DNA of 26,430 nt, taken from a virus (lineage: Duplodnaviria; Caudoviricetes). The position numbers and the translations under genes are program-made. The stretch lies in IMG/VR virus record IMGVR_UViG_3300011335_000288, positions 1-26,430 of that record. One strand, given 5' to 3'. How positions within the stretch are numbered: position 1 is the stretch's first letter; each line of letters begins with the position of its first letter. Positions 4,451-22,672 of the stretch are shown in pieces. The notes beneath the pieces were generated by a model, which ran no database searches, had not been told where the DNA came from, and was given only the letters and a program-made list of their open reading frames with translations.

Positions 4451-4900
4451 TTATTTCTTTCCTTTAGTTGGCATAGTCTCTCTTGACACTTCTCTTACCT
4501 TCTCAAAGGTTCTGAGTCCGCCCAAGCCCAACATACCCATAAGTACAGTCATTAGCTCACCTGAATCTAGTTGTGGAAGCGGTGGAAGAACAAGTAAAGG
4601 GTGGTTCATACCGTATACAAGTAAGCCAAACTCTAGGAAGGGCTTACCAATGTAGTTATACGCTAAAGCCATACCACACACCCAGCCTACAAAGGGTCGC
4701 CAACCTGCTACAAACATATTACCGCTAGCAGCTTCTTCTCTATTGATCTCTAGCTGACCAACTACTAACTGTAACTCACCTTGGAACTCTGCTGATCTAG
4801 CCTGCGCCCCTAACTTAGCGGCTAAATCTTTATCAGCTACAAACTTATCAATAAAGTTATCAAGTAAACCTATACCAGCAGTGACAGGATCGAAGCTCAT
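4451..4900 (-). CDS. 3TM holin (GTA holin-like family)
   Basis: Signature FVAGWRPFVGWVCG...LMGMLGLGGLRTFEK with hydrophobic helices. Confidence 0.8.
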   Translation of the reverse strand: MSFDPVTAGIGLLDNFIDKFVADKDLAAKLGAQARSAEFQGELQLVVGQLEINREEAASGNMFVAGWRPFVGWVCGMALAYNYIGKPFLEFGLLVYGMNHPLLVLPPLPQLDSGELMTVLMGMLGLGGLRTFEKVREVSRETMPTKGKK

Positions 4901-5331
4901 GAATAATTCTCTAAATACTGATTAGCACCTATCCTATTGGCCTCAAACCAACCGAGAGAGGTATTACACTGGTGGCACAATATGCCCCGTACATTCCCTG
5001 TTTTATGGTCGTGATCTACATGGTATGCCCTAGCGCTTGGCTTAAGGCAAATCGCACACACCCCTTTTTGTTCAGCAAGCATTTGATTAAATCTTTCTAG
5101 ATTAATTCCATACTTACGTATTAGGTTAGCGTTCCTGTAGGCGGTTTTATTGCGTGCATAATGCGCTTGCTTGATTGCTTTTATACGATCAGGATTCCGC
5201 AAGCGCCATTCCTTGACTTTGGTTTTTTGTGTCTCGGTCTTGCATCTCTTGCTTCTGGCAGCCGCTACTCTTTCTGGGTGGCGCTCTCTATACAGCTTGC
5301 AAGCGGCAGCGTTAGCTGGATCAAGAGCCAT
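4897..5331 (-). CDS. Recombination endonuclease VII-family (His-Me finger) nuclease, probably a free-standing homing endonuclease
   Basis: KYGI...QKGVCAIC...HVDHDHKTGNVRGILCHQCNTSLG motif with a basic helical N-terminus. Confidence 0.85.
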   Translation of the reverse strand: MALDPANAAACKLYRERHPERVAAARSKRCKTETQKTKVKEWRLRNPDRIKAIKQAHYARNKTAYRNANLIRKYGINLERFNQMLAEQKGVCAICLKPSARAYHVDHDHKTGNVRGILCHQCNTSLGWFEANRIGANQYLENYS

Positions 5332-16929: not shown

Positions 16930-17360
16930 TTACACATCCTGTCATAAGCAGCCATCAGGCGGTACGCTATAGTTTCTATGCCGTACGCTTCTTGTTCTTT
17001 ACCGGGCTTTTCTTCACCAATTACTGTTTGTATCTCTTGCCATACGTGTACCGCTTCATGTATTAATACTGTGTACATCTCTCTAGCGGTAGTATTCGGA
17101 TCAAGTGGTACACACACAATGATAATCTGTGTTAAGGGTTCACCCATATTGAAGAAGTGGGTTGCCCCTAAAGCTCCATCTAATAGGTAAGGAGTAGGTG
17201 TTTCATTTAATCTCTTTAGTTCTTTATCAAATGCCTTCTGCGATGTACATAGTGCATACTGGATAGGTGCTACAGATAATCCTCTATCCATCCACTCTAA
17301 TGCTTTAGGACGTACTATCCTCTTCTTCGCTGTCTGTTTCTTCGTTGTCGAAGTCGCCAT
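16926..17360 (-). CDS. HExxH zinc-metallopeptidase-like protein
   Basis: TVLIHEAVHVWQ...GKEQEAY motif. Confidence 0.65.
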   Translation of the reverse strand: MATSTTKKQTAKKRIVRPKALEWMDRGLSVAPIQYALCTSQKAFDKELKRLNETPTPYLLDGALGATHFFNMGEPLTQIIIVCVPLDPNTTAREMYTVLIHEAVHVWQEIQTVIGEEKPGKEQEAYGIETIAYRLMAAYDRMCK

Positions 17361-17733
17361 CTAAAGCATCCTGTAAAGGCGCAGAGACAGTCGCACCAAG
17401 TCCTGATATGTTAATAGTAATGGCACTCTTACCACCAGCAGCGGCTGCTTCCATGCTACTTATAGGTATCATCCTGTCTAGTAATAGCTTCCATGCTGCT
17501 GCTTGGTTCTTATGGTTATCATCTACTGCTGCATTAAAGATAGCTTCTATCACCTTATGCGACTTAGGCGATGTCATCAGCCTAGCTTTGAACTCAGCCA
17601 TTGCAGCTGCCTCTCCAGGAGGTCTACCTAGCTTCACCAGCTTACCTGGTGTCTTAGCTATAATAGCTGACTTCTTAGGTCTTCCTCTCTTAACAGCATT
17701 CCCTTCGGGATGCACAGGCATAACTTCGGACAT
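17305..17733 (-). CDS. terS: Terminase small subunit (putative)
   Basis: First gene of the late arm; KRGRPKK and LGRPPG basic hooks, QAAAWKLLLDR helix and ITINISG beta strand. Confidence 0.7.
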   Translation of the reverse strand: MSEVMPVHPEGNAVKRGRPKKSAIIAKTPGKLVKLGRPPGEAAAMAEFKARLMTSPKSHKVIEAIFNAAVDDNHKNQAAAWKLLLDRMIPISSMEAAAAGGKSAITINISGLGATVSAPLQDALDGDFDNEETDSEEEDSTS

Positions 17734-17897: not shown

Positions 17898-17926
17898 ATT
17901 ATATCATATTTCAGAATAGAAGTCAA
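17898..17926 (-). promoter_or_regulatory. Sigma70 promoter for the packaging operon (TTGACT-17-TATAAT, extended -10)
   Basis: Minus strand TTGACT-tctattctgaaatatga-TATAAT. Confidence 0.8.
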
Positions 17927-18196
17927 TCAATTGTATAAGATATTCTTAATTGATCTATTATATGATGTGTAATATAGAGAAGTCTCTTATACAACGTGGG
18001 TCGCTTCGCTGTCTCCTTTCTGCGGAGTTAAACAGATTATCAATCTCCGCTGCCCCCCTGCTTTCTTTATCTAATGTAATCAACTACATACCATCTATCT
18101 CAATAGACTACCTTGTTACTTATTACTACTGCTATTAAGTCTACTTTGACCCTATTTTGTATCTAGGTTGGTACTTTAACAATAACTCCTCTGTCT

Positions 18197-18227
18197 CCCC
18201 CTCCCCCGTCCCCTCTATCGACCCCCC
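18197..18227 (-). other. G-quadruplex-capable tract (G6-N8-G4-N2-G5-N1-G5 on the minus strand)
   Basis: Plus-strand C runs at 18197-201, 18203-207, 18210-213 and 18222-227. Confidence 0.6.
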
Positions 18228-18235
18228 TATCTATA

Positions 18236-18286
18236 GTGTTACCTAGGGTGTTACCAGTGTTACCGCCAGTGTTACCAACAGTAACA
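18236..18286. repeat. Four direct repeats of GTGTTACC plus an inverted GTAACA
   Basis: Copies at 18236, 18248, 18257 and 18269; inverted half-site at 18281-18286. Confidence 0.9.
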
Positions 18287-18295
18287 GACCCATTA

Positions 18296-18419
18296 CGCAC
18301 CACAATGGTGCACTACTATGCACTATATTGGTGCAGGTTAGGAGCGCACTAGATTGGTGCGAGGAGTGCACTAAGTTGGTGCGTAATAGATCATGGGAGT
18401 AATGCACTGTTTTGGTGCA
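18296..18419. promoter_or_regulatory. Array of five palindromic NtrC-type enhancer boxes (GCAC-N7-GTGC)
   Basis: cGCACCACAATGGTGCa (18296-312), TGCACTATATTGGTGCA (18319-335), cGCACTAGATTGGTGCg (18345-361), TGCACTAAGTTGGTGCg (18367-383), TGCACTGTTTTGGTGCA (18403-419). NtrC consensus is TGCACCA-N3-TGGTGCA. Confidence 0.8.
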
Positions 18420-18449
18420 TGAATGGCTATATTGGTACGCTATAGTCCC

Positions 18450-18468
18450 ATGCAATATCCATGCCAAG
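18450..18468 (-). promoter_or_regulatory. Sigma54 (RpoN) -24/-12 promoter
   Basis: Minus strand CTTGGCATGGATATTGCAT versus consensus YTGGCACGNNNNTTGCW; GG at 18465-64 and GC at 18453-52 with exact spacing; predicted start near 18440. Confidence 0.78.
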
Positions 18469-18632
18469 TCCGCAACACTTCTTTATTGCCTATGTTTTAC
18501 CTATCTGACTACCTACATAATCATATTGTGCATCAAATAAGGAACATTAAAGTATTTATAAAATAGTGTTGCATCTAATATAAAAGAGAGTAACTTAGTC
18601 GTTGTACTAACTAACCAACAGAGGATACGACA

Positions 18633-19874: not shown

Positions 19875-20087
19875 ATGAATGATAAACTAATAAAACCTAT
19901 GTCAGTCAAGCACATACACAAGCCGCAAGTGAAGCACTACTTTACAGGTGCGCAGTGGTCCAAGTATGCGACACTTGCCGAAGCGGAACAGGTAGCTAAT
20001 GGCAAACCAGTCTATGTGGGCGAGTGGAACAACAAAGCCCGTATGTGGGATATGACAGAAAGAGGCGTACACTATGCAAAACAGTAG
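19875..20087 (+). CDS. 70-aa hypothetical early protein
   Basis: AAGGTGG RBS, co-directional. Confidence 0.7.
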   Translation: MNDKLIKPMSVKHIHKPQVKHYFTGAQWSKYATLAEAEQVANGKPVYVGEWNNKARMWDMTERGVHYAKQ

Positions 20088-20469
20088 ATCACAGATCAAG
20101 CAAGACCTAAGCGCGGCACTAGCACTAGAAGTGGCGCAATGGCAGAAGAAGGGCGGGATTATAGAAGTGTTGCCATCGTGTCAGTATGCACAGCAGCTCT
20201 ATTGTGTCAATGAGGGTCAAACTCAAGAGGGCGTGAGGGTATCAATGAAAGTTGGTACTTTTGTCCCTACTTTGACGATAGCGAAACCAGCAATCCGTAA
20301 AACATGGGCATTAGATGAATCACAGCGTGAGGCAGTGAATGCGCGACAGCGTGAAGTGTATAGGGAGTGGATAGATAAGGGGTTAACACAAGCAGAAGCA
20401 GAAAAGATAGCTAACAAGGAAAAGATGCGCTTATTCTACGCTTTAAGACGTACTAGAGAGACTGAGTAG
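20074..20469 (+). CDS. 131-aa protein with a SutA-like N-terminal motif
   Basis: GAGG RBS; KQDLSAALALEVAQWQKKGGIIEVLP resembles the SutA helix-GG-strand motif. Confidence 0.6.
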   Translation: MQNSRSQIKQDLSAALALEVAQWQKKGGIIEVLPSCQYAQQLYCVNEGQTQEGVRVSMKVGTFVPTLTIAKPAIRKTWALDESQREAVNARQREVYREWIDKGLTQAEAEKIANKEKMRLFYALRRTRETE

Positions 20470-21078: not shown

Positions 21079-22672
21079 AAATCATATACCATGTCCGGAC
21101 AAAGTGGGTTGCAGGAGCAGTGATGGAGCGAGCTTAGACGACTCAGGCTCTGTGTGGTGCTTTGTGTGTGAAAAGACATTTAAAGATCAACCAGTGCCGG
21201 ATGAAACAGCAAGCGTTAAGACGCGCCCCTCATTCGTGGACGTGGCTCATGCGCTTGCTACTAGCGACTTTGCAGGCAATGCGGCAAGGGGCATTACAGC
21301 AGAGACTGCAAGGCTGTATAGGTGTGCGCACGGAGCAGACAAGACACATTATGGCTACTACTCTAAGCAGTCACCAGCGCAGCCAGTGGCAATTAAAACT
21401 CGATTGGCTGGTAAGATGTTCCCTTGGAGTGGTGACGAGAAACACGCCTTTCTGTACGGACAACAGTTATTCCCCGCAGGCGGCAAGTTCGTCACTATTA
21501 CTGAAGGCGAAGAAGATGCGATGGCGGCTTATCAGTTGACAGGCAGTAAGTACCCTGTAGTGAGCATCAAGAATGGCGCAAGCGCAGCATTGACTAACTG
21601 TAAGACGCATTACGAATGGCTAGAGAGCTTTGAGACTATCGTTATCTGTTTTGATGCTGACGAAGCAGGACACAAAGCGGCTAAGGAAGTAGCGCAGCTC
21701 TTTGGGGGCAAGTCTAAGATTATGAAGCACATAGCGGGTGCTAAAGATGCTTGTGACTATTACAAGCTAGGCAAAGCAGCAGACTTTGTTAATGCGTGGT
21801 GGAGAGCAGAACGATACACCCCAGACGGGATAGTATCGGGTGAGTCTCTGAGAGAGGCGTTAAAGACTCCTGTACAACCCCCAAAGCTGTTCTATCCTTG
21901 GAGAGGGCTTAATAGAATGTTGCGCGGCATACGACCAGCGGAGCTAGTGACATGGTGTGCAGGCTCTGGCATAGGCAAGTCGAGTATGCTAAGAGAAATA
22001 GTTGTAAACACCTTACAAAGCACAGATGAGAGCGTGGGGCTTGCATTCTTAGAAGAAACACCAGAGCGCACGATGAGGGGCATAGCCGGGCTTCATATGA
22101 ATAAGCCTATACACTTAGACGGCATAGACTACACAGGCGAAGAAGTAGACGATGCTTATCTTAAGTTAGGGCTCGGCAACAGAGTACAGTTCTGGGAACA
22201 CTGGGGCAGCTCGCAGATTGATAACGTAATCTCGCGTTTACGCTACATGGCTAAAGCAATGGGTTCAAGTCTGTTAGTCTTAGATCACATATCAATAGTA
22301 GTATCAGGTGACGCTACGACTAATGAACGACAGACTATTGATGAATTAATGACAAGATTGAGGACGGAAGTTGTACAACAAACCAACTGCTCGTTACACA
22401 TTGTTAGCCACTTAACACGGCCTGACGGTAAACCGTTAGAGCTAGGCGCACCAGTACACTTAGGACTGTTACGAGGCTCTGGCAGTATAGCGCAGCTTAG
22501 TGATGTAGTTATCGCAGGAGAGCGCAACAGCCAAGCAGAAGACCCAAGCGAGAGGAACACCATCAAGCTGAGAGTCTTAAAGTCTAGAGCAACTGGAGAG
22601 ACAGGCGTAGCTTGTTCTTTAATATATGATAGAGCTAGTGGGAGATTGACTGAGTTGGAGGACACACTATGA
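21068..22672 (+). CDS. T7 gp4-like DNA primase-helicase
   Basis: Zinc finger CPDKVGC...CFVC, TOPRIM TEGEEDA and FDADEAG, Walker A AGSGIGKS, LDHISI, LRGSGSIAQLSD. Confidence 0.96.
   Translation: MLVKNHIPCPDKVGCRSSDGASLDDSGSVWCFVCEKTFKDQPVPDETASVKTRPSFVDVAHALATSDFAGNAARGITAETARLYRCAHGADKTHYGYYSKQSPAQPVAIKTRLAGKMFPWSGDEKHAFLYGQQLFPAGGKFVTITEGEEDAMAAYQLTGSKYPVVSIKNGASAALTNCKTHYEWLESFETIVICFDADEAGHKAAKEVAQLFGGKSKIMKHIAGAKDACDYYKLGKAADFVNAWWRAERYTPDGIVSGESLREALKTPVQPPKLFYPWRGLNRMLRGIRPAELVTWCAGSGIGKSSMLREIVVNTLQSTDESVGLAFLEETPERTMRGIAGLHMNKPIHLDGIDYTGEEVDDAYLKLGLGNRVQFWEHWGSSQIDNVISRLRYMAKAMGSSLLVLDHISIVVSGDATTNERQTIDELMTRLRTEVVQQTNCSLHIVSHLTRPDGKPLELGAPVHLGLLRGSGSIAQLSDVVIAGERNSQAEDPSERNTIKLRVLKSRATGETGVACSLIYDRASGRLTELEDTL

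Follow-up and report, generated by a model that had tools for sequence, protein, structure and literature searches.

Five NtrC-type boxes in a stretch of viral DNA of 26,430 nucleotides (the window) very probably fill the terminal repeat of a phage genome with an interchangeable cassette. Judging from sequence, we consider that this repeat may be a swappable DNA decoy that would titrate scarce host regulators as phage genomes multiply, a reading that we favor while giving it slightly less than an even chance. The initial annotation of this DNA had raised titration of NtrC and sigma-54 as its second idea, and that idea is the one we consider best. The features of the region are collected in Table 1.

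Table 1. Features at the divergence of the late and early arms (window coordinates)
Feature	Position	Strand	Basis or remark
Probable small terminase, first late gene	17305-17733	minus	Position upstream of TerL
Sigma-70 late promoter	17898-17926	minus	11/12 match with extended -10
Terminal motif 1 (T-tract ... GG)	18155-18171	plus	Left genome end inferred from 18172
Inferred direct terminal repeat, 264 bp	18172-18435	none	Motif profile, contig ends, homology to G004
Conserved C-rich tract near left end	18197-18208	plus	Family conservation; cobavirus repeats also start C-rich
TGTTAC (four) and GTAACA (one)	18237-18286	none	Resemble CbrB subsites
NtrC-type box 1	18296-18312	none	Palindrome scan and consensus match
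NtrC-type box 2	18319-18335	none	Palindrome and consensus; matches E. coli glnA site
NtrC-type box 3	18345-18361	none	Palindrome scan and consensus match
NtrC-type box 4	18367-18383	none	Palindrome scan and consensus match
NtrC-type box 5	18403-18419	none	Palindrome scan and consensus match
Terminal motif 2 (initially a "sixth box")	18417-18439	plus	Right genome end after 18435
Sigma-54 -24/-12 site	18452-18467	minus	Exact TGGCAY-N5-TTGC; 16 bp outside repeat, facing repeat
Likely sigma-70-type early promoter	18569-18596	plus	Weak consensus match, AT-rich upstream
First early ORF, 68 aa	18633-18839	plus	No assigned family

The window is a partial, collapsed phage contig that holds 26 kb of an ∼36- to 40-kb genome. 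Its late arm, on the minus strand, encodes a probable TerS, TerL, portal, and capsid, and its early arm, on the plus strand, a primase-helicase and polA. The probable TerS gave no family match above the cut-off, and none of its 394 homologues was usefully named. A late sigma-70 promoter similar to that of the window is present in 75 of 109 relatives. The weak sigma-70-like site on the early side sits 64 bases ahead of the first early ATG, where 24 family arrays have one, and was not listed by a stricter promoter scan. No terminator-like site was found between 17300 and 19000, Rfam returned one chance-level match, and a possible SutA-like motif at 20074 to 20469 had no Pfam support. An endonuclease VII-family open reading frame, possibly a homing nuclease, lies at 4897 to 5331 amid the lysis genes (holin, lipoprotein). 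The phage occurs in river and lake data sets, and the RNA runs matching it consist of assembled contigs with small shares. A TerL scan of genomes for a host returned nothing, and the 10 bins from unrelated phyla retrieved by an alignment scan were read as misbinned phage contigs, so no host is named. In a Ca. Eutrophomonas bin, the late module of the family abuts a frameshifted glcDE on a 390-kb contig (L370:4188-13239), likely a chimeric join that we did not use for the host.

The GCAC-N7-GTGC palindromes described in the initial annotation are present, with five clustered starts (18297, 18320, 18346, 18368, and 18404) and one more at 21727. These six compare with 0.35 expected in the window, and none of 100 shuffles reached that number. 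Scored against the NtrC consensus, TGCACCA-N3-TGGTGCA, boxes 1 to 5 carry 1, 1, 3, 2, and 2 mismatches, respectively. Box 2, which had been equated with a glnAp2 enhancer core of E. coli, is identical at 16 of 17 bases rather than at all of them to the second NtrC-type site upstream of glnA in E. coli K-12. The five boxes therefore match host NtrC-type sites, as had been proposed, and the proteobacterial host suggested along with them is likely. The degenerate sixth box had to be given up, as it carries seven consensus mismatches and coincides with the conserved terminal motif at the right genome end. A 74-amino-acid open reading frame across the boxes had no family match. TGTTAC/GTAACA elements, like those that lie left of box 1, are described as CbrB subsites of Pseudomonas putida in the accessible text of PMC6296734; GTGTTAC was not enriched in our held-out set of relatives (5 versus 5).

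Both genome ends could be mapped. A T-tract/GG motif followed by a C-tract, which served as our anchor, is present in 67 of 113 loci, and a second conserved motif lies 82 to 345 bp to the right of the C-tract across the family. A profile of this second motif, trained without the clade of the window and in a manner that favors the right side, scored above the null maximum in 92 of 109 arrays. In the window it places the cut after 18435, the score there being weak (6.4, with the null maximum at 6.0). Contigs of two runs from two studies (X3 and X7) end exactly at this base, a coincidence with a chance of roughly 1 in 10,000 given about a dozen ends in 750 bp. Twelve family contigs, none of them used in training, end less than 450 bp from the C-tract; four stop exactly at the cut, one of these joined to sequencing adapter, one stops inside the motif, and seven stop elsewhere. 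The complete relative G004, with a GP88 70% identical, begins one base past the motif 1 cut and ends one base before the motif 2 cut, and it carries at both ends the same 146 bases, which lie between these two motifs and include two perfect DnaA boxes. Since the G004 repeat is bounded by homologous motifs, we infer the repeat of the window, with direct support for its right border and support by homology for its left. No contig of the window phage was seen to begin at 18172, and contig ends did not pile up in the runs (Logan contigs), whose depth cannot reveal a doubling of the repeat.

Three further observations were made around these ends. Of 15 family contigs that start left of the C-tract, 10 do so 166 to 362 bp from it, near the late promoter and outside our end model. 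A GCGG...CCGC inverted repeat on the late side (18022 to 18050), possibly a packaging or concatemer signal, recurs, at positions -154 to -303 relative to the C-tract, in 19 of 109 relatives. Position 18176 is T in the window and G in all eight runs compared, the T being either an uncommon allele or a mistake in the window sequence.

To place the repeat in its family, we gathered relatives through TerL and the GP88 gene. The resulting 113 loci yielded 52 distinct arrays, with three doubtful anchors and one duplicate contig dropped; two stricter anchor patterns gave one match each. Matches right versus left of the anchor in this first set numbered 16 versus 0 for NtrC, 99 versus 1 for sigma-54, 20 versus 0 for DnaA, 10 versus 0 for LexA, 7 versus 0 for Fur, and 8 versus 2 for parS, with patterns chosen after the sequences had been viewed. 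The patterns were then fixed for a held-out set picked by the anchor alone (flanks in 80 of 120 loci; 57 new arrays), where 168 matches fell to the right of the anchor and 1 to the left, in 40 versus 1 of the 57 arrays. Over the 109 distinct relatives, the slot contains DnaA, sigma-54 (up to 11, in both orientations), LexA, Fur, or NtrC sites. A de novo test with 10-mers repeated three times barely separated the two sides (47 versus 30 of 52). As controls, the NtrC, DnaA, and LexA patterns matched the E. coli glnA, oriC, and recA regions, and the sigma-54 pattern did so when mismatches were allowed. The Fur pattern had no match in the E. coli fepA-fes region, the NrdR pattern matched at two mismatches only, and the parS pattern went without such a control; the family sites carrying the first two labels are those that we take to be Fur and NrdR sites. 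A triple-box scan of viral contigs returned 121 loci, two of which are covered here, and no cultured phage resembled the array DNA or TerS.

The contents of the slot are exchanged between close relatives. Eight loci with TerS 86 to 100% identical carry four unrelated cassettes in the same 120 bp, with a mutual identity near that of shuffled sequence, and three of the four occur with identical TerS. Some cassettes are common to phages with different TerS. It follows that the cassettes reassort and that TerS, a binder the initial annotation had allowed for, does not recognize the boxes. Other repeated motifs inside the repeats, namely, TGTCAA-N3-TTGACA, TGACT-N4-AGTCA, a TCTTATATAAGA palindrome that we take to be SdhR-like, and TTGTC...GACAA, were seen in L166, L169, L212, L214, L220, and L240; L173, L299, L388, and L389; L246, L291, and L322; and L148.

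We compared the interior of the repeat with the next 300 bp in 92 arrays. Sigma-54 (111 versus 14), DnaA (74 versus 25), LexA (12 versus 2), and Fur (10 versus 5) matches were more numerous inside, and NtrC (13 versus 17) and parS (1 versus 7) matches were not. NtrC matches are no denser inside the repeat family-wide, with 13 in 17.6 kb compared to 17 in 27.6 kb outside. Repeat length rises with the number of sites (rho of 0.57; 92 arrays), and 33 of the 92 repeats hold none of the tested motifs, many of them showing other repeats. The sigma-54 sites in the arrays are found in both orientations (73 and 26). Fifteen arrays have 3 to 11 sigma-54 sites inside the repeat; none of them has an NtrC box, and 10 have a sigma-70 site further on. 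In the 24 arrays of the sigma-70 class, none of 106 sites, repressor-type sites included, falls within -40 to +50 of the sigma-70 -35 box. In these arrays the sites therefore neither overlap nor adjoin the sigma-70 promoter, as host-sensing CtrA sites or pho boxes would. Consensus sites for IHF, CRP, FNR, and PhoB are absent from all 92 repeats. IHF-consensus matches did occur in the 250 bp left of motif 1 (28 versus 0 inside the repeat), in an AT-rich zone and counted with no shuffle control.

Outside the repeat, a different arrangement is found. A forward sigma-54 site follows 90 to 150 bp downstream in 6 of 9 arrays whose NtrC boxes lie in that zone, versus 13 of 80 arrays without boxes (P = 0.0025), and all three arrays with a TGTTAC cluster outside the repeat have a forward sigma-54 site, while the pattern used found none in the seven arrays with NtrC sites inside. 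Six relatives (L249, L254, L269, L271, L282, and L313) carry NtrC boxes 90 to 150 bp upstream of a forward sigma-54 site, ahead of the first early gene, sharing the layout of glnAp2, and no sigma-70 site was found. In relatives with 57 to 66% TerS identity, the first early gene is preceded by TGTTAC repeats and then, across an AT-rich spacer, by a forward sigma-54-type site. A TGTTAC/GTAACA cluster followed by the same spacer and site was noted in L391, L392, L396, L398, L408, L409, and L411 and in L127, L171, L177, and L186, and these early regions resemble the CbrB-driven crcZ promoter. Both layouts look like true host-activated early promoters. The window differs from these relatives in that both enhancer-type clusters lie inside the repeat and the sigma-54 site lies outside, reversed.

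The -24/-12 element had been described as a promoter coupled to the boxes. The element itself is an exact match, the sole one in the window, and has the GG-N10-GC of a glnAp2-type promoter; with one mismatch allowed, the pattern gives 3 matches against 3.5 expected. The boxes cannot be its upstream enhancer, since the site points into them: from a start predicted at ∼18440, all five lie downstream, and no NtrC box is found on the upstream side of the site, where a glnAp2-type enhancer would sit at 80 to 150 bp. Nor did we find a gene that would depend on it, the next minus-strand gene being 700 nt off, past the inferred genome end, with a sigma-70 promoter of its own. The proposed switch for virion genes is not supported in this phage, given the position of the boxes inside the terminal repeat and of the sigma-54 site outside, the sigma-70 promoter of the late genes, and the relatives in which three or more sigma-54 sites fill a repeat without any NtrC box. 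Such an architecture does occur in other members of the family, for early genes and outside the repeat. The claim that no activator is encoded was borne out, with neither an NtrC-type HTH (HTH_8) nor a sigma-54 activator in any of four near-complete relatives. Six of six close alleles keep both the boxes and the minus-strand sigma-54 site, which varies from +255 to +347 relative to the C-tract and has ATGC in place of TTGC in two of them. The reversed site is therefore probably under selection, and it is likely one more trap rather than a late promoter.

Three things can be read directly from the DNA: the sites are there, two terminal motifs confine them, and near-identical phages have exchanged cassettes. 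Our preference for a decoy rests on the two repeats per genome, the lack of promoter overlap, the free orientation and interchangeable identity of the sites, and the use of specific regulators over abundant nucleoid proteins. As in a decoy locus, several strong sites lie away from promoters on multicopy DNA, the multicopy state following from lytic replication. Each genome would carry the repeat twice, making ten NtrC boxes, and the repeat, non-coding, would enter the host first or last. NtrC is present at tens of copies per E. coli cell. A regulator at that level would be exceeded in number once the genomes had replicated into the tens, and the NtrC/sigma-54 nitrogen-stress program of the host would then be silenced without any phage protein. 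The benefit to a phage of titrating each regulator is argued from general knowledge. Against a decoy stand the third of repeats without tested motifs, the even density of NtrC sites inside and outside the repeat, the conservation of boxes and sigma-54 site together in all six close alleles, which a coupled promoter also predicts, and the position of the sigma-54-type sites of the cultured phage VpV262 just outside its annotated repeat.

It is unlikely, in our judgment, that host proteins instead form a physical coat on both repeats, where they would protect the ends of the linear DNA against nucleases or sensors of ends or ratchet the DNA in during entry. Any tight binder could serve, which agrees with sites that are confined to the repeat, present at both ends, and indifferent in identity and orientation, and a role in injection is proposed for the DnaA boxes of the T5 terminal repeat in the accessible text of bioRxiv 10.1101/866236. 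However, the abundant binders IHF, CRP, and FNR are missing from the repeats, so the regulators chosen fit titration better than a generic coat, and the outermost 65 and 16 bp of the window repeat hold no sites. Bound proteins are, moreover, displaced by RecBCD. The accessible part of a RecBCD preprint (10.1101/2021.07.08.451572) contains nothing on end coats. We regard as slightly more doubtful a switch in which phosphorylated NtrC, bound to the boxes, turns on the minus-strand sigma-54 promoter. Transcription from this promoter would cross the junction of a concatemer into terS and raise late-gene expression when nitrogen is limiting. The exact -24/-12 match, its retention with the boxes in close alleles, the lack of a terminator-like site in the region, and the NtrC/sigma-54 promoters that the family builds elsewhere all argue for such a switch, and enhancers downstream of the start exist for FleQ and FlrC. 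On virion DNA, though, a transcript from outside the repeat would run off the end after ∼270 nt, the boxes lie downstream and the position of the site varies, the late genes have a strong sigma-70 promoter, and arrays with NtrC sites inside the repeat lack a forward sigma-54 site by the pattern used.

A role in packaging seems improbable. Here terminase and the duplication of the repeat would be blocked or paused by a host protein sitting between the cut sites, for as long as replication had not titrated that protein away. The two terminal motifs delimit the cassette exactly, the predicted sigma-54 start lies 5 bp from the right cut, and host IHF assists the packaging of lambda and P1; but repeat length past the C-tract is far from constant across the family, a third of repeats have no known sites, and the distance from sigma-54 site to cut is not fixed. 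We find it very improbable that the cassettes are neutral debris, whether as fragments of promoters copied within a non-coding repeat that tolerates them or as binding sites of a phage protein whose gene lies beyond the partial contig. The contig does lack part of the genome, and the TGTTAC cluster resembles an early-promoter enhancer that has been displaced. Yet debris would hardly consist of exact host consensus sites for at least five regulators with varied spacers, in cassettes common to phages with different TerS, and neither HTH_8 nor a sigma-54 activator turned up in the four near-complete relatives.

Titration by the repeat, our preferred reading, has partial counterparts among known systems. 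In alphaproteobacterial phages, CtrA sites cluster in gap regions and terminal repeats, and the accessible text of PMC9437464 links them to "lytic deferment." As there, sites for a host regulator are concentrated in terminal repeats or non-coding gaps and are gained and lost among relatives; unlike there, where a single regulator is read as promoter control, at least five regulators and sigma-54 share the slot, and cassettes swap between near-identical phages without overlapping an early promoter. T5 likewise has an array of host-protein sites in its terminal repeat with a proposed physical action on DNA, but its eight boxes keep a conserved arrangement in a 10-kb repeat, whereas the repeats described here are ∼110 to 370 bp long and their sites are interchangeable. 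The likeness to E. coli glnAp2 extends to box sequence and -24/-12 spacing and ends at the layout, since glnAp2 has two boxes ∼100 to 140 bp upstream of the promoter whereas in the window five lie downstream and the next 700 nt contain no gene. Strong sites grouped at a distance from any promoter, which sequester a limited protein, also characterize datA-type titration loci and operator titration; those cases are chromosomal or engineered, unlike a phage repeat, and we know of no phage terminal repeat shown to act as a titration locus.

Among cultured phages, the Zobellviridae (cobaviruses ICBM1 and ICBM2, VpV262, and RIO-1) are similar in having two opposed arms, a T7-like primase-helicase, polA, and short direct terminal repeats, of 121 to 172 bp with C-rich stretches. 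Cobavirus repeats are given as 159 to 173 bp with a G+C-rich start in the accessible text of PMC6775973. The primase-helicase of the window is 42% identical to that of SIO1/ICBM1. In contrast, over most of their length its TerL, portal, and capsid stay below ∼34% identity to any cultured phage, and no member of the Zobellviridae is among the top matches listed for these three proteins. The Vibrio phage VpV262 carries six sigma-54-type sites (one strict and five relaxed, in both orientations) just beyond its 138-bp left repeat (L420:173-346), and none of the regulator motifs was found in ICBM1, ICBM2, or RIO-1.

In the full-text literature that we searched, a body that excludes most subscription papers, no paper describing arrays of NtrC or of sigma-54 sites, or swappable cassettes, in phage repeats was found. 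The present analysis adds a map of both ends, an enrichment test on held-out arrays, the swapping of alleles, and a distinction between the cassette in the repeat and the early promoter. Terminal repeats are usually treated as packaging and replication signals, and here they come with a variable payload of host-regulator sites. The mapped ends make a decoy testable, the repeat being a defined 264-bp piece, and VpV262, with its sigma-54-type array beside the repeat, is in culture. The sites also offer hints about the lineage of the host and about the host regulons that restrict phages growing in lakes and estuaries. We tentatively suggest, as a possibility we hold with limited confidence, that in a large aquatic phage family the terminal repeat is a swappable, protein-free host-takeover module whose alleles serve as operator sponges, each directed at another regulon of the host (nitrogen, replication initiation, SOS, iron, or sigma-54), and are exchanged by recombination within populations, and that in some members the first early genes are separately under a true sigma-54 promoter of the NtrC or CbrB type, so that infection starts on a host nutrient signal. 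Such a payload would let a phage rewire host metabolism by DNA alone, in a way invisible to gene annotation.
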